From Actinomycetota bacterium (GTDB taxonomy: Bacteria > Actinomycetota > Acidimicrobiia > Actinomarinales > Actinomarinaceae), in contig JAAZZH010000005.1 in NCBI GenBank assembly GCA_014239265.1, forward strand, positions 1,030-65,029: 64,000 bases of DNA, in the 5' to 3' direction. Every line of letters begins with the position of its first letter. Positions within the stretch are counted from its first letter, which is position 1. Shown here one piece after another: positions 22,842 to 39,909 of the stretch. The notes beneath the pieces are model-generated. The model ran no database searches, was not told the origin of the DNA, and saw only the letters and a list, made by a program, of their open reading frames with translations. The position numbers and the translations under genes are program-made.

Positions 22842-23918
22842 ATGGAAATAGTTAAAGGTAGCATTGCAATCATGGGTTCAGGAGAAACTAGTCCTGCGCT
22901 TGTTTCTGTTCATAGAAAGTTTGTTGAAATGTTGGATAACCAGGTAAAGGCATTTTTAATAGATACTCCCTTTGGATTTCAAGAAAATGCAGATGTACTC
23001 GTTGATAAATTACAACTCTTTTTTAAAAAAAGTGTCCAGATAGAAATTAAATTAGCAAGTTTAAGAAATACTAACAATATTGACTCAGTTGAATATTTTG
23101 AAATGCTTGAACAGCTCAAAAGCTCAAATTTCATATTTTCTGGTCCTGGTAGCCCTAGCTATGCTTCTAAAACCTGGTTACATTCAGAGATTCCAAATGT
23201 ACTTACTAATCATCTAAAGGATGGTAAGCACGCCGTATTTTCAAGCGCAGCTGCTTCTACTATGGGAGAGAAAACAATCCCAGTTTATGAAATATATAAA
23301 GTTGGCATGAATCCTTTTTGGGAAGAAGGTCTAAATATACTTGAGCTTTATGGATTAAGTTGTACAGTTGTACCTCATTTTAATAATAAGGAGGGTGGTA
23401 ATCACGATACAAGCTGTAGTTATATAGGTAAAAATAGATTAAATAGCCTGATTGATAAAGAGTATACAAATATTTTAGGAATTGATGAACATACTGCACT
23501 TGTTATTAATGGTGAAAAAGAAATATTCCGTATCGAGGGAATCGGATCAGTTACAGTTAAGACAAGAAATGGACAAACAATTTTTGAAGCAGGTAACGAA
23601 TATTCACTTTCAGAATTACAAAGCATTCTTCAAGAAACAAATAAAAAAGTTCTGGAACCTAAAAAAACCTCTTCAGACAATATTGACGTAAATTCTCTCA
23701 AAAAAGAAATAGCAAAACTCAACTTGGAGATAAAAAATAATAATGACTTTACAACTCTATTTGATAAAACAATATTAGAAATCATTAATTTAAGAAATAA
23801 ATTTAGGACTGAAAAGAAATATAGTGAATCTGATGAAATTCGCGATTTACTCGATAACCTTGATATAACAATTGAAGACAATAAAACAGATTCAAGCTGG
23901 AAATTTAAAGGTCAATAG
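22842..23918 (+). CDS. Peptidase S51/cyanophycinase-like domain fused to a CysRS-type C-terminal anticodon-binding helical domain
   Basis: MGSGET, FSGPGSPSY, FSSAAA, VVPHFNN, GIDEHTAL; C-terminus LRNKFRTEKKYSESDEIRDLLDNLDITIED...W. Confidence 0.7.
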   Translation: MEIVKGSIAIMGSGETSPALVSVHRKFVEMLDNQVKAFLIDTPFGFQENADVLVDKLQLFFKKSVQIEIKLASLRNTNNIDSVEYFEMLEQLKSSNFIFSGPGSPSYASKTWLHSEIPNVLTNHLKDGKHAVFSSAAASTMGEKTIPVYEIYKVGMNPFWEEGLNILELYGLSCTVVPHFNNKEGGNHDTSCSYIGKNRLNSLIDKEYTNILGIDEHTALVINGEKEIFRIEGIGSVTVKTRNGQTIFEAGNEYSLSELQSILQETNKKVLEPKKTSSDNIDVNSLKKEIAKLNLEIKNNNDFTTLFDKTILEIINLRNKFRTEKKYSESDEIRDLLDNLDITIEDNKTDSSWKFKGQ

Positions 23919-24723
23919 TTCCGTATCTACCTATTATTTTAAACTTTTTTGTTACCAAATCTAATTTATCTTTCAATTGAGTATCAATATAACCATCAGA
24001 GTTTTGATAATCAATATAAAATTTATACTCCCAGGGACTTCCAATGATTGGTCTAGATTCTAATTTTGTTAAATTAACATTAGTCTCCTCAAATATTTTC
24101 AGAGCAGACAGTAACGAGCCGGGCTTGTCATCTGCTATCAATATTGCGGATCTTTTATTTTTTGATATCTCAAGTTTAGTATCTTGATCTCCGACAAGAA
24201 AAAAACGAGTGTAGTTTTCTACATGGTTTGAAATGTTTTTTTTCAGAACTTTAAAACGACTATCACCTTCAAAATGCTCTCCTGCAATTCCAGCGATAGT
24301 TTCAGATTCTTCATCTAATAAACTTAAGACACTTCCAGCTGTGTCAAACACTGGTTGAAGTTGTACATTCATCTCTTGTAAAAAGTTGCTACATTGTTGA
24401 AGAGCTTGTGGGTGTGAAATAACTCTTTCAATATTTTCAAGTTTTGAATCTTTTAATCCGATGAGCGCGTGTGTAATTTTTTTCTTAAACTCTCCGTATA
24501 CAGTTAATTCACTCTGGATTAAATTTTCGTAAGAATCTACAACAGTCCCAACTAGTGAATTTTCAACAGGGAGTAAACCATAATCGTCTCCACCTGCCTG
24601 GGCAACAACCTCTCTGAATGTCTGACATTCAACATACTGCTTATTAGGAAAATAGCTCTTTAAAACAGACTCTGAATAAGAGCCTTTTGAACCTTGATAA
24701 TATATTTTATTAATATTTTTCAT
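23905..24723 (-). CDS. pheA: Prephenate dehydratase (with ACT domain)
   Basis: YQGSKGSYS, PVENS, SHPQALQQC, NYTRF, NLTKLESRP. Confidence 0.95.
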   Translation of the reverse strand: MKNINKIYYQGSKGSYSESVLKSYFPNKQYVECQTFREVVAQAGGDDYGLLPVENSLVGTVVDSYENLIQSELTVYGEFKKKITHALIGLKDSKLENIERVISHPQALQQCSNFLQEMNVQLQPVFDTAGSVLSLLDEESETIAGIAGEHFEGDSRFKVLKKNISNHVENYTRFFLVGDQDTKLEISKNKRSAILIADDKPGSLLSALKIFEETNVNLTKLESRPIIGSPWEYKFYIDYQNSDGYIDTQLKDKLDLVTKKFKIIGRYGTIDL

Positions 24724-25141
24724 ATAAATAATCGATTGCCTCAATGTAGCCGTCGATACCTTTTCCAGTGATAGTCAAGTCACAAAAATCTGATATTAAG
24801 TTTACTTGTCTAAAATCCTCTCTGTTTTTTATATTACTAATGTGTACTTCAATTGACGGTATCTTAAGTATTGCTAGGGCATCTCTAATTGCAATACTGG
24901 TATGTGTATAGGCTCCTGGGTTAATTATTAGGCCATCAATATCCTCTTGTATTGCTGTATGAAGCTTGGATACGATTTCCCCTTCAACATTTGATTGATA
25001 GGTTTCTAGGTGAAATTTATCAATCGAATAATCTTGTATGATCTCCTTTAGTTCTTGATAAGAAGTTTTTCCATACTTATCTAGCTCTCTAATTCCTAAC
25101 ATATTAATATTTGGACCATTAACCACAAGTATTTTATGCAT
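24710..25141 (-). CDS. aroQ: Type II 3-dehydroquinate dehydratase
   Basis: NGPNINMLGIRE, INPGAYTHTS, EVHISN. Confidence 0.96.
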   Translation of the reverse strand: MHKILVVNGPNINMLGIRELDKYGKTSYQELKEIIQDYSIDKFHLETYQSNVEGEIVSKLHTAIQEDIDGLIINPGAYTHTSIAIRDALAILKIPSIEVHISNIKNREDFRQVNLISDFCDLTITGKGIDGYIEAIDYLYEKY

Positions 25142-26141
25142 AGGTTACCTCATTAAGTAAATCATCTAGATTGAAATCAACTAAAACTGGATTTCCAATA
25201 TTTTTTAGAAGAACGTACTTTACAACATCCTTAGAAAATTTTTTATCGTTAAACAACAGTTCTTTAAGCTGCTCTGGATTACCGCTGAATTTATAGTCAA
25301 TATTAAGGTCTAACTTTTTTAGAAAATTTTCAAAATTGTCAGAAACATTTATATCTAAATTACACATTTTTTCCGATATTTTTAGGGCTTTTAAAATTCC
25401 TATGCCTACTGCTTCTCCATGGGGAATACTATGTTTAGAATCTATCTCAATTAGATGTCCAATAGTGTGACCAAAGTTTAAATACATCCTCTCAGAACTT
25501 TCTTTAAAGTCATTTTTTATTATTTCGTTTTTAATGTCTATAGCTGCTTTTATAAGTTCAATATTAACTTTAGAAATATCAGTTTCATAAACCTGTTGAA
25601 CTAATTCAGGACTCTTTAAGAATCCTGCTTTTATCAACTCAATCAGCCCATTTTTAATTTGTTTATCTGGTAATTCTCCTAAAAACTCTGGGCAAATTAA
25701 TACCTGATCAGGCATCATAAAAGTCCCGATTTGATTTTTTCCATGTGTGGTATTAATTCCATTTTTTCCACCGTGTGCAGCGTCGACCATTGATAAAAGT
25801 GTTGTAGGGATTATTACGAGACCAGTACCTCTTTTATAGGTACTTGAAGCAAATCCAACAGCATCGGATAATACTCCTCCCCCGATGCATAAGACAGTTG
25901 AGCTTCTTTGTATTGACTTCTCAAACATATCTTCCCAAATTTTTGATACGGTATCGAGATTTTTTTTCTCTTCTATAATTTCAATCTCTTTATAGTTTTC
26001 GGATAATTTTTTAAGTTGAGGAAATTTAAATAAAACTTGTTTATCAATGTAGATCCGGGAGATTTTATCATCAGTTAATTTATCACAATAAATCAATAAC
26101 TCATTTAAGTTTTTAAAGTATTTGACATTAGATTCTTGCAA
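25134..26141 (-). CDS. aroB: 3-dehydroquinate synthase
   Basis: GGGVLSD, PTTLLSMVDA, KNQIG, NFGHTIGH, HGEAV. Confidence 0.95.
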   Translation of the reverse strand: MQESNVKYFKNLNELLIYCDKLTDDKISRIYIDKQVLFKFPQLKKLSENYKEIEIIEEKKNLDTVSKIWEDMFEKSIQRSSTVLCIGGGVLSDAVGFASSTYKRGTGLVIIPTTLLSMVDAAHGGKNGINTTHGKNQIGTFMMPDQVLICPEFLGELPDKQIKNGLIELIKAGFLKSPELVQQVYETDISKVNIELIKAAIDIKNEIIKNDFKESSERMYLNFGHTIGHLIEIDSKHSIPHGEAVGIGILKALKISEKMCNLDINVSDNFENFLKKLDLNIDYKFSGNPEQLKELLFNDKKFSKDVVKYVLLKNIGNPVLVDFNLDDLLNEVTYA

Positions 26142-26142
26142 T

Positions 26143-26655
26143 TTATACCCAACCTAGTCGATTAATGATTATCTCCGAAGCTTCTTGAAGGCTATGTTTA
26201 GACATATCGATTGTATTTTTACAGTGCTTATATGTATGAAGTCTTTCAAGATAAATTTTCATTACATTATCTTTTCCAGTAGAGACTAACGGTCTTTTAC
26301 TATCTTTAATATTTTCCCATAGATTTTCAAATTCATTTTTTAAGTAAAAAGTATGTTCTGATTTCAATACCGCAGATTTAATAGGTTTAGATATCATTGA
26401 TCCTCCACCAAGAGAAACCACTGTATTAGAATTTTGATAAATTTTCTGAAAAGCTTTAAGTTCACAATCTCTAAAATATTCCTCCCCGTATTTTTCAAAC
26501 AATTGCTCAATACTTTCTATATCATCTTTACTTTCACTCAAAACAATATCATCTAAATCAAAAGTATGTATTTCTGTATTCAGTTTTAAGATATTCAAAA
26601 CAGAAGATTTTCCAGAACCCATAAACCCAGCTAAAAATGCTGTCTTATTCGACAT
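26143..26655 (-). CDS. aroK: Shikimate kinase
   Basis: GFMGSGKS, GEEYFRDCE, SLGGG, RPL. Confidence 0.93.
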   Translation of the reverse strand: MSNKTAFLAGFMGSGKSSVLNILKLNTEIHTFDLDDIVLSESKDDIESIEQLFEKYGEEYFRDCELKAFQKIYQNSNTVVSLGGGSMISKPIKSAVLKSEHTFYLKNEFENLWENIKDSKRPLVSTGKDNVMKIYLERLHTYKHCKNTIDMSKHSLQEASEIIINRLGWV

Positions 26656-27817
26656 CGTATTTCATACTCCATAATTCATTTTTTATATTGAATTCGTTAA
26701 TTTCAAGTTTTGGAATATTGTTAAAACTTTGAGTTATTTCTTTTTTATGATCTCCTCCTGTTTTGATTAGTAGATTATTTAATATTTCAAATGCCATGAT
26801 TGCTTCAAATATTGGTATGGCCCTTGGCACAGCACATGTATCAGAACGTTCATAGACTGTTTCCGTTTCAATTTTTTCGGCTAAGTCTATGCTATTAATT
26901 GGGGTTAAAGTAGTACTGATTGGTTTTAAATATGCCGTAATGTGTAACTCTTCACCATTTGTCATACCTCCCTCGAAACCACCGAGGTTATTTGAAATCT
27001 TGGTTATTTTTTTTCCATCTAGAGAGTACTGATCTTGAACTTCTGTACCAAATTTTTTAGCAATATCAACTCCTTTTCCAATCTCGACAGCCTTTACGCT
27101 TTGAACAGACATAAACTGTTTTGCAAGAATTGCATCAAGTTTTTTATCCCAGTGTACGAAGCTACCAATTGTAGCTGGAACTCCTGTTGCTACACATGTT
27201 ATAGAGCCCCCAAGGGTATCCTTATTTTTTCTCGCTGAAAGAATCTCTTCTTCCATCAATTTACTAGTTGCAACTTCAGGACATCCAACTTCAGACTCTG
27301 TAACTTTATCCCTCTCGATTTTATCTTTAATTTTATTTTTATAGGAAATGCCTCCTATTGCTGATACGTATCCTGTGACTTCAATCCCCAGTTCTTCAAG
27401 CACCTCTGATGCAATCGCCCCTATTGCAGTTCTCATAGCAGTTTCTCTCGCACTTGCTCTTTCTAAAACTAATCTGATATCTTCATGGTTATACTTTGCT
27501 GTTCCAACTAAATCTGCATGTCCCGGTCTCGGCACTACATAGGGATCTATTTCCTTATCTTTCCAGTTTTTCCAATCTTTATTTAATATTCGTAAAGCAA
27601 TTGGCGCTCCAGTAGAAACTCCATTGACGACACCTGAGCTAATTAAAACTTCATCTTGTTCAATGTTCATTCTGCCCCCGGAACCAACACCTTTTTGTCT
27701 CCTTTGTAAAAAGCTATCTATATATTTTTTTGAAATATTAAAACCAGCCGGTATGCCTTCTAAAATTCCAGTTAACTCGGGACCATGGCTTTCGCCGGCG
27801 GTTAGATATCTAATCAC
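26645..27817 (-). CDS. aroC: Chorismate synthase
   Basis: TAGESHG, PRPGHAD, ERASARET, KPIST. Confidence 0.97.
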   Translation of the reverse strand: MIRYLTAGESHGPELTGILEGIPAGFNISKKYIDSFLQRRQKGVGSGGRMNIEQDEVLISSGVVNGVSTGAPIALRILNKDWKNWKDKEIDPYVVPRPGHADLVGTAKYNHEDIRLVLERASARETAMRTAIGAIASEVLEELGIEVTGYVSAIGGISYKNKIKDKIERDKVTESEVGCPEVATSKLMEEEILSARKNKDTLGGSITCVATGVPATIGSFVHWDKKLDAILAKQFMSVQSVKAVEIGKGVDIAKKFGTEVQDQYSLDGKKITKISNNLGGFEGGMTNGEELHITAYLKPISTTLTPINSIDLAEKIETETVYERSDTCAVPRAIPIFEAIMAFEILNNLLIKTGGDHKKEITQSFNNIPKLEINEFNIKNELWSMKYDVE

Positions 27818-28599
27818 TTTTCACCTTCCAATTTGTTTAATACTTCACCATAAATACTACTTATACTTACTGCCGCAGATGTCCATATATTAAAAGACTC
27901 TATGGCCTGACAGATTAACATTCCTAATCCATCATATTTTAAGATTGAATCATCAAAATTATTTAAAAAAGTATTTTCTGATCCATAACCAAGATTTATT
28001 ACAGTTTTTAAATTAACTAATTCATGCCACTTTATTGGTAGTTCGACATTTTCATATGGTGACATCCCTACAGGGGTTGTATTTATGACCATTCCTATTT
28101 TAGAACTTAGATTAGGAACATCATTATACGAAATAGTATTATCTCTAAGTGATCGACTCACAATGTGATATTTAATATTTAATAGTTTTAAAGAGTATGC
28201 TATTGCCTTTGAACTTCCACCAGAACCAAGAATTAAAACTTCCATTTTGTTAAAGTTATGATCAATCAAATCTAGAAAGTCCATAAAGCCAGAAAAGTCA
28301 GTATTAAATAAATGCATTCTTGAATTTTTAATTAAAACCGTATTGCAAGCTCCAATTTCTAAAACACTTTTACTTAGGATTGCAGTATCATCAAAAGCCA
28401 GTATTTTTTCTTTGTGTGGAATTGTAATGTTGTATCCATGAAAGTCCTGATTTATTTTTAAAATTGTTTCTTGATTAATATTTTCTTTTCTGATTGAACT
28501 GTAAGAACCTTTAATACCAGTGTGATCAAATAATAATTCATGTATCTGTGGTGAAAATGTCTTCGTCAGAGGCCAACCAAGTACTCCAAATTTATTCAA
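27814..28599 (-). CDS. aroE: Shikimate dehydrogenase
   Basis: SPQIH, NITIPHK, GACNT, NTDF, GSGG, NTTPVGM, DGLGML. Confidence 0.92.
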   Translation of the reverse strand: MNKFGVLGWPLTKTFSPQIHELLFDHTGIKGSYSSIRKENINQETILKINQDFHGYNITIPHKEKILAFDDTAILSKSVLEIGACNTVLIKNSRMHLFNTDFSGFMDFLDLIDHNFNKMEVLILGSGGSSKAIAYSLKLLNIKYHIVSRSLRDNTISYNDVPNLSSKIGMVINTTPVGMSPYENVELPIKWHELVNLKTVINLGYGSENTFLNNFDDSILKYDGLGMLICQAIESFNIWTSAAVSISSIYGEVLNKLEGEK

Positions 28600-29869
28600 T
28601 TATCTCACCACCTATTTTGTTTATATCATCAAAGAATGAAGGATATGAGTCGTTAATACACTGAATATTATCAGGAAGGATTTTCTTACTAAGGGTTAAG
28701 TTAGCTACTAAAGCTGTCATTGAAATCCTATGATCATCTTTTGTTTTTATGACTCCCGCATCTAAATTTTGCTTCCCTATTATTTTAAATCCATCAGGAT
28801 ACATTTTAATTTTTCCATTTAGCGCTTGTATAAACTCTTTCATAGATTCAAGACGATCCGATTCTTTTATTCTCAACTCTTCGGCACCCCTCAAAGTTGT
28901 CTCTCCTTCCGCTTGAGATGCTAAAAAGGTCAATAAAGGAATCTCATCAATTAGGTCGGGAATTTCATCAGGCTCTATCCGTGTAGCTATTAATTCTGAC
29001 TTAATAACTTCAATATCTCCTATTAGTTCATTTCCAACTTCAGTGATATTGCTTATTGTGATGTTTCCATTCATTCTTTTTAGAATTTTGAGAAAACCAA
29101 TACGCCTTTCATTGATAAGAACTTTTTTGAGAACTATTTTATCTGACGACAAAATACCTATTGCAATAAGAAAGGCTGCTGATGATATGTCTGAGGGTAT
29201 CCTAAAACTGCTAGGTTTCAAAACCTGGTTGGGAGGAACAGTGATAGAGGAACCCATCCTGACTAACCCCACTCCCATGTGTGAAAGCATCCTCTCTGTA
29301 TGGTCTCTTGTGGGAACGTTCTCTGTTATTACAGTTGGTTCTTGGTGATATAAAGAAGCTATAATTAACGCGCTTTTTACCTGTGCGCTAGGAACAATTG
29401 TATTTATAGTGTTGAATGCAGATTCTGTTTTTTCGAACTTTATTGGTAAATATCCTTCATTGGACTTAATACCTGAACCATGCTCAGTTAAAAGATTAAT
29501 AACTCTTCCCATTGGTCTTTTGCTTAATTGACTACTTCCGATCAACTCTGAGGAAAAGTTTTGCCTGGCAAGCAAACCTGTTAGAAGACGGGCAGTGGTT
29601 CCTGAACTTTTTGCATCTAAGGCCTGTTTTGACTTAGATAAACCGTTAAGCCCTACTCCATGAATAACAAGAGTATTGAGTTCTTTAACCTCTATGTTTA
29701 CGCCTAAAGAGTTGAAGATTTCAATAGTTGCAGTTGTATCTCCAGATATTAAAACATTAGAAAACTCAGATACTCCCTCAGCTATTGATCCAAATATTAT
29801 TGATCTATGAGAAATTGACTTATCACCTATTAAGGAAATTTCACCTGAAAGCTTTTTTTCAGGATTCAA
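28592..29869 (-). CDS. aroA: EPSP synthase (class II)
   Basis: GDKSISHR, SAQVKSA, RDHTE, KESDR, DHRI. Confidence 0.96.
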   Translation of the reverse strand: MNPEKKLSGEISLIGDKSISHRSIIFGSIAEGVSEFSNVLISGDTTATIEIFNSLGVNIEVKELNTLVIHGVGLNGLSKSKQALDAKSSGTTARLLTGLLARQNFSSELIGSSQLSKRPMGRVINLLTEHGSGIKSNEGYLPIKFEKTESAFNTINTIVPSAQVKSALIIASLYHQEPTVITENVPTRDHTERMLSHMGVGLVRMGSSITVPPNQVLKPSSFRIPSDISSAAFLIAIGILSSDKIVLKKVLINERRIGFLKILKRMNGNITISNITEVGNELIGDIEVIKSELIATRIEPDEIPDLIDEIPLLTFLASQAEGETTLRGAEELRIKESDRLESMKEFIQALNGKIKMYPDGFKIIGKQNLDAGVIKTKDDHRISMTALVANLTLSKKILPDNIQCINDSYPSFFDDINKIGGEIIE

Positions 29870-30696
29870 CTTAGTGGCCTTTCCCCAAATTTGTCAGATA
29901 ATGCCCTTCTCCAATGAACAGAATTATTCAAATAACTAATAAGTTCATCTCTTTCTTGTAGGTCAACTAATTCCATTAATTCACTTAAGAAATATTTAAG
30001 GAATTTATTAATATTTTCAGAATTAGTGTCATACATATCTTTTATCATCTCAGGATTAGTTCTAGTGAGTCTTGTAGCTCCGTCAAAACCACCAGCTGCC
30101 ATACCCATAATTTCATTTATCTCATAGTTATCTCTAGCAGTACCAACTAACGCTGTACTTATTAAGTGTGGAAGGTGGCTTGTTATCGAAATTATCTCAT
30201 CATGATGAGTTCTATCAATCCAGACTTCCTTAGAGTTTAATAATTGAATCATCTCAAGAACAATCTCTTTTGACGTTTGGTCCATTGACTTGGTTTCGCA
30301 CAATAAAAATGTAGCTCCATTGTAAATCTCCGGGTCAGGTTCCCATGAACTATTATCCGAAATACCACACATTGGATGGCCACCAATTGATGGAACCTCG
30401 TAACTATCCATTAAATTGCAAATCTTCTCCTTTGTCCCGCCTATATCAATTATTGCTTTAGTATTAGCAATTAATTTATCTGAACTAAGAGTTGATAAAA
30501 TACTATTTATAGGCATAGCAAGAATAGTTAAATCAACTGCCTGTGATGAATTAACTACATTAATTCCCAGGTTAGATGCTCTCTCGAGTGATTCAGTATT
30601 AACATCCTCACCGTAGACTTTTATCCCTTTACTAAGTAATTTAAGCCCAAGATTTGTTCCCATAAGGCCAAGCCCATAAACTCTTACTGACTTCAT
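29866..30696 (-). CDS. tyrA: Prephenate dehydrogenase
   Basis: GLGLMG, DIGGTK, GGHPMCG, HD...SHLPH. Confidence 0.92.
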   Translation of the reverse strand: MKSVRVYGLGLMGTNLGLKLLSKGIKVYGEDVNTESLERASNLGINVVNSSQAVDLTILAMPINSILSTLSSDKLIANTKAIIDIGGTKEKICNLMDSYEVPSIGGHPMCGISDNSSWEPDPEIYNGATFLLCETKSMDQTSKEIVLEMIQLLNSKEVWIDRTHHDEIISITSHLPHLISTALVGTARDNYEINEIMGMAAGGFDGATRLTRTNPEMIKDMYDTNSENINKFLKYFLSELMELVDLQERDELISYLNNSVHWRRALSDKFGERPLS

Positions 30697-30698
30697 TT

Positions 30699-31715
30699 CT
30701 AGTTAAGTGTTCTTCCTACTACTTTTGCGATAGAGCTAACTTTTTTGCTTAGCTCATTTAACTGAGAGGGAACTAATGCTTGTGGGCCATCACAAAGAGC
30801 TTCATCTGGTCTCGGGTGAATCTCAATTAAAAGTCCGTCAGCCCCTGCTGCAATAGCTGCTAGGGCAACAGGCTCAACAAGCTTACTGTCTCCTGTAGCA
30901 TGACTTGGATCGGCAATAACTGGTAGATGTGAGTTTATTTTAAGAAAGGGTATAGCATTTACATCAAATGTATTTCTTGTTGCTGTCTCATAAGTTCTTA
31001 TACCTCTTTCACACAACATCACATTTTCATTTCCCCTAGCTAAAATATATTCAGAAGCAAGTAAGAGTTCTTCTAAAGTCGCACTCATTCCCCTTTTAAG
31101 TAGAACCGGTAGCTTTGATTCCCCTACTGCCTCTAGCAACTTAAAGTTTTGCATGTTTCTAGCTCCAACTTGAAGAACATCAACATATTTTTCCATCATT
31201 GATAAGTGCTGAGTATCCATTATTTCACTAAATAAAGGAAGGTTATTTATATCTGAAGCTTCTTTGAGCATTTTTAAACCATCTTCACCTAATCCTTGAA
31301 AGCTATAAGGAGATGTTCTTGGCTTAAAAGCACCTCCTCTTAATCCATTACCTCCAGCAGCTACAACAGCCTCAGCTGTTTCAAGAGTTTGTTCCATTGT
31401 TTCGGCGCTGTCTGGTCCTGCAATAAGAGCCAGTTCACTTCCTCCGATAATTAAGTCCTTGATCTTAATTTGAGTATTTTCTTCTTTATAACTGCGGCTT
31501 GCTAGCTTGTAGGGCCTACCTATAGGAATTACCTCATGAACGTTATCTAAAAGTCTCATAATGGCTCTATTGTCTTCAATAACTTTTCCGCTCACGGCAA
31601 CGACAGTTCTTTCGACGCCAAATATAGTCAAAGGTTCATGACCTTGTTCTATAGCTTTACTTTTAACCTTATCAACATCTTCCTCAGAAGCTGCTTGTTT
31701 CATTACGATTATCAT
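30699..31715 (-). CDS. aroF: DAHP synthase class I-beta with N-terminal regulatory domain
   Basis: MIIVMK, RGGAFKPRTSPYSFQG, GARNMQNF, LLKRG, ADPSH. Confidence 0.95.
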   Translation of the reverse strand: MIIVMKQAASEEDVDKVKSKAIEQGHEPLTIFGVERTVVAVSGKVIEDNRAIMRLLDNVHEVIPIGRPYKLASRSYKEENTQIKIKDLIIGGSELALIAGPDSAETMEQTLETAEAVVAAGGNGLRGGAFKPRTSPYSFQGLGEDGLKMLKEASDINNLPLFSEIMDTQHLSMMEKYVDVLQVGARNMQNFKLLEAVGESKLPVLLKRGMSATLEELLLASEYILARGNENVMLCERGIRTYETATRNTFDVNAIPFLKINSHLPVIADPSHATGDSKLVEPVALAAIAAGADGLLIEIHPRPDEALCDGPQALVPSQLNELSKKVSSIAKVVGRTLN

Positions 31716-31729
31716 TTCTTCTCCTAAAT

Positions 31730-31755
31730 AAAAAAATCGGGCTTTTGCCCGATTT
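31730..31755 (-). terminator. Attenuator terminator (3:4 hairpin) upstream of aroF
   Basis: AAATCGGGC-AAAA-GCCCGATTT with a run of 7 U, just upstream of the aroF AGGAG RBS. Confidence 0.85.
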
Positions 31756-31779
31756 ATTACAACACAACTTTAGGGCAGC

Positions 31780-31824
31780 TTATATGTGCTCACTAAAGTA
31801 AAAAAAAGTATTGTTTAATTTCAT
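31780..31824 (-). CDS. Aromatic amino-acid attenuator leader peptide MKLNNTFFYFSEHI
   Basis: 14-codon ORF with consecutive TTT TTT TAC TTT codons, followed by alternative hairpins and a terminator. Confidence 0.8.
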   Translation of the reverse strand: MKLNNTFFYFSEHI

Positions 31825-31831
31825 TGTGATT

Positions 31832-31859
31832 ATCTTACCATCTTTATTTGCTTTGCCAA
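31832..31859 (-). promoter_or_regulatory. Promoter of the aro leader
   Basis: TTGGCA-16 nt-TAAGAT with TG extension; leader ATG 7 nt downstream (leaderless geometry). Confidence 0.6.
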
Positions 31860-31865
31860 TTACTT

Positions 31866-32207
31866 TTATCTATCAGGACGAAGTTTTTTTGCTTCTCCTA
31901 AATAAACATGTTTAATGTTCACATTATCTTCGTAGTGAATCAATATTCGTATGCAACCTTTTAAGTCATATTCTACATTGGGAGCCAAAGTGTCTATTGC
32001 AGGAATAGAAGTATGCCCAAGTTCTCTTAGTGCTTTAGCTGGGAATGCTTCTGTTAAATCATGAGTTAGTGTAAATAAAACTGAAATGATTTTATCAATT
32101 TCTAAATTATTTACTTTAAGGATTTCAGTAAAAAGATCTTTACTTGATTGAATAATGTTCTCTGAAGTATTTTGTACCTCAGCAATTGCTCCTCTAATTC
32201 CTATCAT
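31866..32207 (-). CDS. aroH: Chorismate mutase, AroH class
   Basis: GIRGA, DLTEAFPA, CIRIL, HVYLGEAKKLRPD. Confidence 0.93.
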   Translation of the reverse strand: MIGIRGAIAEVQNTSENIIQSSKDLFTEILKVNNLEIDKIISVLFTLTHDLTEAFPAKALRELGHTSIPAIDTLAPNVEYDLKGCIRILIHYEDNVNIKHVYLGEAKKLRPDR

Positions 32208-32223
32208 ATTTTTAGCTTACTAT

Positions 32224-32250
32224 AAAAAAAGAGCGGACCTAAATCCGCTC
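32224..32250 (-). terminator. Intrinsic terminator after groEL
   Basis: GAGCGGA-TTTAGG-TCCGCTC followed by T7 on the minus strand. Confidence 0.85.
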
Positions 32251-39706: not shown

Positions 39707-39740
39707 ATTATCTCCATTCCAACGAGCAAGTTGAAATTAG

Positions 39741-39876
39741 ACTACGTTAATTTGCTTCTGTTCAAAGATTTCTCTCTGTTTTTAAACAATTTATTACGAC
39801 TGTAGAGCCGAGTATGCATCCGCCGAATTTTCGATAACACACTTCCTCGTCACCTTTTTCAAGGTCTGGCGCTATA
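39741..39876 (-). ncRNA. glmS ribozyme (GlcN6P-activated riboswitch-ribozyme)
   Basis: Core AGCGCCAG-ACCTT-GAAA-AAGGT-GACGAGG...TTATCGAAAATTCGGCGGATG...CGG in the glmS 5' UTR; predicted cleavage between 39873 and 39872. Confidence 0.93.
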
Positions 39877-39909
39877 TTTGCTCGTTAATATAATTATAAC
39901 GAAGATATT

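Follow-up and report, generated by a model that had tools for sequence, protein, structure and literature searches.

The window, the whole 64,000-nt stretch of DNA analyzed here, belongs to a 1.05-Mb genome of 34% GC. Its aroF shares 94-99% identity with records named as Ca. Actinomarina or Actinomarinales, which identifies the host as Ca. Actinomarina, a small marine actinobacterium. The minus strand carries, in this order, groEL, a terminator, aroH, a 150-nt gap, and then aroF-tyrA-aroA-aroE-aroC-aroK-aroB-aroQ-pheA, in which the genes from aroF to pheA abut or overlap. The nine gene names given in an earlier note on this DNA fit the NCBIfam/Pfam best hits, several of which score below the curated cut-off. 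The product of aroF is a DAHP synthase of type I-beta with an N-terminal ferredoxin-like domain. The order of the operon is identical in two of the three relatives examined at full length, the contig of the third ending within aroK. The features at and around the 150-nt gap, in window coordinates, are as follows.

31866..32207, minus strand: aroH, chorismate mutase (TIGR01796), upstream of the leader promoter
31854..31859, minus strand: -35 hexamer TTGGCA, overlapping the end of the aroH intergenic gap
31832..31840, minus strand: extended -10 element TG-G-TAAGAT, with TAAGAT at 31837-31832 preceded by TG
31825, minus strand: probable (inferred) transcription start, an A one nt before the AUG; alternative 31824
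31780..31824, minus strand: leader ORF MKLNNTFFYFSEHI followed by a stop codon, 14 codons, no SD, ATG at 31824
31808..31814, minus strand: 5' arm of the outer extension of helix 1:2, pairing with 31765-31759
31795..31806, minus strand: putative control codons Phe7-Phe8-Tyr9-Phe10 (YFYF, FFYF or YFFYF in relatives)
31788..31799, minus strand: segment 1, 5' arm of the anti-antiterminator (from folding and alignment)
31767..31779, minus strand: segment 2, whose GCCC (31776-31773) can pair with the segment 1 side or with segment 3
31759..31765, minus strand: 3' arm of the outer extension of helix 1:2, pairing with 31814-31808
31730..31755, minus strand: intrinsic terminator, with segment 3 (31755-31747), a loop, segment 4 (31742-31734) and U7 (31736-31730)
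31721..31725, minus strand: SD of aroF, AGGAG, outside the terminator stem and 3' of the U tract
23905..31715, minus strand: operon aroF-tyrA-aroA-aroE-aroC-aroK-aroB-aroQ-pheA (NCBIfam/Pfam best hits)

The promoter (TTGGCA, a 16-nt spacer, TAAGAT and a further 7 nt to the ATG), the leader ORF lacking an SD, and segments 1:2 and 2:3 with a terminator ahead of the aroF RBS had all been described in the earlier note and are present at the locus; the TG extending the -10 box is added here, and the outer stem of helix 1:2 had been missed. Between 31400 and 32600 the leader promoter is the sole promoter-like site on the minus strand, yet the total from the promoter scan (3) is not above that of shuffled sequences (3.6 ± 1.9), which places the promoter match, taken alone, at chance level. 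A TTG-like -35 hexamer can be seen by eye (uncounted) in most relatives. Only 14 nt, containing the SD, separate the U tract from the aroF ATG (31715, minus strand), which leaves no room for a separate aroF promoter, a finding that the earlier note had said would count against its reading; transcription can therefore reach the operon only by passing the terminator. The upstream gene aroH has a leaderless signature of its own (TAAGCT, 6 nt, ATG; window 32207-32250, minus strand), placed directly after the groEL terminator, and no terminator stands between aroH and the leader; this chorismate mutase gene lies outside the predicted attenuated unit.

We regard conservation as the decisive evidence for the predicted element. 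A search of 65 genomes from the order gave an aroF match in 54, the 11 unmatched ones being 60-87% complete, and one matched genome (G013), in which the aroF 5' end is missing, was left out of the counts. All 53 genomes with an intact aroF 5' end have the leader ORF with an unbroken run of four or more Phe/Tyr codons, as well as the GCCC and the terminator, so that the conservation of the ORF and its aromatic run, proposed earlier as a check, extends to every relative counted; these genomes, which include G088, the single genome of a second genus, are close kin from one family and therefore not independent. The aromatic run reads YFYF in 40 genomes, FFYF in 12 and YFFYF in one. The GCCC stands just behind the stop codon and the U tract is at least six long in 53/53, and an SD-like motif before the leader AUG is found in 0/53. 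A TGnTAnnnT element precedes the leader ATG in all 53 genomes, at 7 nt (40), 8 nt (12) or 6 nt (1), and its variable positions change while the spacing stays at 6-8 nt. The leader itself varies in a coding-like manner: among 34 distinct leaders the changes include TAC/TAT, AGT/AGC, CAC/CAT, AAA/AAG, TTA/CTA/TTG and TAA/TAG, a one-codon (3-nt) deletion keeps the frame, and the first control codon toggles solely between Tyr and Phe (TAC/TAT/TTT, with two-base changes). The stop codon is TAA in 36 genomes and TAG in 17. The His-Ile pair before the stop (window 31783-31788, minus strand) occurs in 34/34 distinct leaders (CAC/CAT, ATA/ATT) while the two preceding codons vary, and either a peptide or an RNA constraint could account for it.

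Outside the order, the leader was seen in none of 105 aroF loci that share ~45-55% identity and have 150 nt or more of upstream sequence (of all 190 loci, 7 that were truncated had been dropped). Some aromatic-rich short ORF is present at 16 of the 105, and six loci of the same class from other families have no Phe/Tyr run. A metagenome search with the divergent aroF returned three Actinomarinales-like loci among 80, all of them repeats of known leaders. At the metagenome loci L136, L137, L161, L142 and L157, aromatic-rich short ORFs lie 80-265 nt upstream of aroF, and likewise at L124, L146, L148, L188 and L189 (aroF ~48-50% identity, unrelated loci), examples being ...TAYFYFYR..., ...NFYYYYYFF... 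and MFYDTYVFTL; judging from sequence, these are likely separate aro attenuators.

The start of the leader transcript can be approached through the genome as a whole. The distance from a TANNNT box to the ATG of a gene peaks sharply at 6 nt (149/939 and 144/1025, over a background of ~30), and ~12-15% of long ORFs have TANNNT exactly 6 nt before the ATG, suggesting that leaderless genes are common in Ca. Actinomarina. For the aro leader the spacing is 7-8 nt against this peak of 6, and an A directly precedes the AUG in 52/53 genomes, which together make 31825 the likeliest start. The start at ~31824 suggested earlier should probably be moved by one nt: a start at 31825 is the more likely, and the aro leader mRNA would then be near-leaderless. 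RNA contigs (4 of 14 runs holding the stretch) cover aroF, the leader and aroH and give no usable starts, ends or levels: one ends exactly at 31825, a weak hint of a start there, and another reaches 31870, but assembled contigs cannot show starts, and breaks in the assembly may account for the ends seen at 31825, 31736 and 31742.

Leaderless attenuator peptides are described, in the available parts of the respective papers, for Deinococcus deserti, in which the trpE leader transcript starts at -1 (PMC4007540), the same position as predicted for the aro leader, and for C. glutamicum ilvL, the leader peptide of ilvB (PMC11857589). [quoted passage not shown] In the searched part of the D. deserti supplement, aroF was not found (PMC4007540).

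Folding of the whole leader gives a z of -4.7 (0/200 shuffles), and the terminator (-13.6 to -13.8 kcal) likewise reaches z -4.7 with 0/200 shuffles. Taken alone, neither the 1:2 core (-9.0 kcal, z -1.0) nor 2:3 (UGCCC/GGGCA, -8.6 kcal, z about -1) is significant. The outer 7-bp stem, which varies in sequence, brings the 1:2 hairpin to -13.2 kcal in total, and its duplex scores -5.63 with its own partner compared to -5.08 ± 0.23 with permuted ones (8/500, among kin that are not independent). RNAalifold recovers 1:2 and 3:4, the stems of which hardly vary. The antiterminator is mutually exclusive with the 5' arm of the terminator, its GCCC/GGGC pairing in 37/37 distinct leaders, and because this 2:3 core never varies it gives no covariation signal (score 0, 500/500 shuffles equal). 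The compensatory stem changes that the earlier note proposed to look for do occur, but they are few, nearly all come from one leader (L105), and there are none in 2:3: across the 37 distinct leaders, a double change affects one of the 18 predicted pairs, a terminator U-A that has become G-C in L105, while helix 1:2 has two single changes and two of the 37 leaders break two pairs. In L105, the most divergent leader (aroF 74% identical), both arms of 1:2 and the terminator stem have changed, and it still folds 1:2 (-11.8), 2:3 (-7.9) and 3:4 (-17.5); it was folded as a single sequence because MAFFT mis-registers it in helix 1:2. At the Rfam gathering score, there is no match to a leader (Phe, Trp, His, Leu and Thr leaders, T-box), and the window contains only a glmS ribozyme. 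The latter (RF00234, 89 bits) is located at window 39738-39884 (minus strand), upstream of glmS.

To model the switch, the RNA was masked under a ribosome at each codon and the transcript was folded up to segment 3. Over the 37 distinct leaders, the mean P(1:2) is 0.99 with no ribosome, the mean P(2:3) with the ribosome on the four aromatic codons is 0.84, 0.91, 0.96 and 1.00 (minimum 0.20, on the first), and with the ribosome at the stop P(2:3) is 0.00. In the window's leader, 2:3 can form from about T6/F7 onward and is lost again at I14/stop, whichever footprint between 11 and 16 nt is assumed and at both 20 and 37 °C. Since 2:3 stays open at S11-H13 as well, the open range in the model is not specific to the aromatic codons. 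When the full-length transcript is folded, the terminator prevails wherever the ribosome is placed (P(2:3) 0.00), and the model therefore needs kinetic, co-transcriptional folding; in attenuators, the antiterminator is generally held to form first and to persist. With these provisos on the assumed footprint and on kinetic folding, a stalled ribosome frees segment 2 in the model and a ribosome at the stop covers it, which is the switch expected from the 1:2 / 2:3 / 3:4 logic of the earlier note.

The aro leader carries, as far as can be predicted, every sequence-testable feature of a classical attenuator, its codon run being matched to an operon whose products are precursors of Phe and Tyr, and it is very probably a ribosome-mediated transcription attenuator of this kind on a leaderless or near-leaderless mRNA. 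A ribosome would load at the 5' AUG of the leader mRNA. With charged tRNA-Phe, and probably tRNA-Tyr, it would reach the stop and cover the GCCC of segment 2, upon which 3:4 would form and transcription would end near 31730. A stall on codons 7-10 would instead cover segment 1 and leave segment 2 free, 2:3 would form before segment 4 is made, and the polymerase would read into aroF-pheA. In the absence of a ribosome, the long 1:2 hairpin would form and lead to termination. Transcripts of aroH would continue into the leader; there the ORF, internal and lacking an SD, would be poorly translated and 1:2 would form, so that the attenuator would end them; the same terminator probably also serves aroH in this way.

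The pheL and trpL leaders of E. coli have an SD, whereas the Actinomarina leader has none. The two are alike in the alternative helices 1:2, 2:3 and 3:4, in control codons that overlap segment 1, in a stop codon adjoining segment 2 and in the intrinsic terminator; the Actinomarina leader differs further in its mixed Phe/Tyr run, its shorter antiterminator (5-bp core) and the lack of an Rfam match. Two other mechanisms were considered and rejected. Translational attenuation by sequestration of the SD does not fit, as AGGAG comes only after the U tract and the centroid structure leaves it unpaired, and for frameshifting on a T8 run, as described for pheL in the available part of PMC3082878, there is no evidence, most relatives being without a T8 run.

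A scan of the genome for a -10 box followed by a short ORF, a terminator and a gene passed 6 of 2122 ORFs. Besides aro, two of the passing leaders fit their pathways; their positions in the window's genome (G000) are given by contig.

L201, G000:C66:20650-20540, minus strand: leader MKKLYVLITLLVLVLM before ilvB (TIGR00118), -10 box 8 nt upstream
L202, G000:C96:21030-21110, plus strand: leader MMNIIIIN before cimA (citramalate synthase, TIGR00977), with a hairpin and a terminator

The ilvB leader has an AGCGCTC hairpin and a CCTCCC/GGGAGG terminator, the stems of the latter varying by eye in a paired way, and the ORFs downstream of ilvB are presumably ilvN, ilvC, leuA and leuB. Its pattern is found in 34 of the 35 genomes fetched (of 56 matching). 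The cimA leader, with 4-5 Ile codons (MKKIIIII in many relatives), is found in 35 of 36 fetched (of 52 matching); by eye, the two misses have a similar ORF with another spacing or -10 box. A literature search found no Ile attenuator of cimA, and predictions elsewhere may exist. The conservation of these two pathway-matched leaders suggests that attenuation is a habit of the whole lineage, and this strengthens the attenuator reading of aro. The scan filter was also passed by a short ORF, MFSSISVILCINYLNMLFVE, with a terminator-like hairpin before a lipoprotein-like gene (G000:C77:9449-9339, minus strand); it has no pathway-matched codon run.

Sensing of Phe by the predicted aro attenuator is likely, and sensing of Tyr is plausible and on balance slightly favored. 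The attenuator could instead sense Phe only, or general ribosome speed, with the Tyr codons kept for RNA pairing; we hold this to be the less probable course, though a serious one, and it is a sub-case of attenuation rather than an alternative to it. In C. glutamicum, a leader with Phe-Tyr-Phe, aroR, precedes aroF (available parts of PMC4046766 and PMC3890552), and according to the available part of PMC11802643, which cites Neshat 2014, it responded to Phe limitation and not to Tyr availability. The leader of this genome has a single Tyr codon; the invariant Tyr9 lies in helix 1:2, and its conservation need not therefore reflect Tyr sensing, and in the model the switch stays open between T6/F7 and H13, beyond the aromatic codons. 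A sensor of Phe alone is harder to reconcile with the two Tyr codons found in 41/53 genomes, with a first control codon that toggles between Tyr and Phe alone, and with an operon that includes both tyrA and pheA. The aroR and Actinomarina leaders are alike as actinobacterial Phe/Tyr leaders before a DAHP synthase gene in which stalling leads, or in Actinomarina is predicted to lead, to read-through, the likeness being one of FYF motif and position in what is available on aroR, not of aligned sequence. They differ in the run (Phe-Tyr-Phe versus four to five Phe/Tyr codons) and in what follows, since the Actinomarina operon has nine genes that cover the shikimate route in full together with tyrA and pheA, and begins with the gene of a type I-beta DAHP synthase.

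It is very unlikely that the leader is an untranslated switch under the control of a protein or a metabolite (TRAP-like, or a riboswitch), with a U-rich stretch that mimics Phe/Tyr codons. Translation of the leader is a prediction, the loop CACATATA is highly conserved in its nucleotides, and TTT/TAC runs are common at 34% GC: in this genome, 7 of 2081 short ORFs behind TANNNT have four Phe/Tyr codons in a row, of which the aro leader is the only one also among the 6/2122 that have a terminator and then a long ORF behind them. An untranslated switch would, however, not account for an AUG that in 53/53 genomes keeps a distance of 6-8 nt from the -10 box, for the synonymous changes, the TAA/TAG swap and the 3-nt deletion, or for sister leaders whose codons are Leu/Val/Ile at ilvB and runs of Ile at cimA, and the leader has no Rfam match. 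An unregulated, leaky terminator that ends aroH transcripts and damps the operon, the peptide being functional or incidental, is highly improbable, because although aroH has no other terminator before aroF and one RNA-library contig (30949-31870) spans the whole leader, it leaves unexplained the conserved GCCC complementary to segment 3 right behind the stop, the dedicated promoter and the aromatic run.

The mechanism is already known, and there are published cases both of leaderless attenuator peptides and of an aroF gene preceded by an FYF leader. A literature search outside subscription journals found no prior description of such a leader in Actinomarinales. The available part of a 2005 survey reported finding no element for Phe/Tyr among the Actinobacteria sequenced by that time, and also that changing the candidate control codons of S. 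coelicolor ilvB had no effect (PMC1262725), a result that counsels caution about the attenuator reading. In Acholeplasma, the uORFC-13-1 motif contains a predicted uORF upstream of aroF (available part of PMC8632094); by its description it resembles the Actinomarina leader in having Phe codon(s) and a terminator ahead of aroF, in a bacterium whose genome is small, and differs in its RBS and lineage.

The aro leader has no Trp codon. Among the 65 genomes of the order, trpA is found in none and trpB over the cut-off in none, and Actinomarinales are reported, in the available part of PMC7771536, to be auxotrophic for Trp, His and Arg. The lack of a Trp codon matches both observations, from which it would also follow that chorismate goes mainly to Phe and Tyr. 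A weaker trpB-like match (~145 bits, below the cut-off, in frames of 450-470 aa, L191-L200) occurs without trpA in 26 of the 65 genomes, and there is none in the window's genome. We take these matches to be possibly a stand-alone TrpB2 for indole salvage. As to His, the His13 codon of the leader lies at the border of the range over which the modelled switch is open, in an organism reported as a His auxotroph. ARAGORN calls a tRNA-SeC (tca) in this 1-Mb genome.

Actinomarinales are described, in the available part of PMC7771536, as having 'little regulatory capabilities', with 2 sigma factors, a lack of two-component systems and a genome that is 97% coding, and despite this ~150 nt of scarce intergenic DNA appear to be spent on an order-wide switch that gene callers and Rfam missed. 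We tentatively suggest, as a reading that could well prove too broad, that in this lineage, which ranks among the most streamlined free-living ones, three family-wide, leaderless, ribosome-sensing attenuators (aro for Phe/Tyr, ilvB for Leu/Val/Ile and cimA for Ile) may be the main control of amino acid synthesis, that aro may be a true two-input Phe and Tyr sensor, unlike aroR, and that the aro terminator may double for aroH; leaderless initiation would then let only 5'-proximal transcripts read the aro terminator. The value of the finding is in the host lineage, the mechanism being textbook. The aro leader would be a compact test case for whether mixed Phe/Tyr leaders sense both amino acids, and the ratio of terminated to read-through transcripts of the three leaders may indicate in situ, in marine metatranscriptomes, whether Phe/Tyr, branched-chain amino acids or Ile are limiting.
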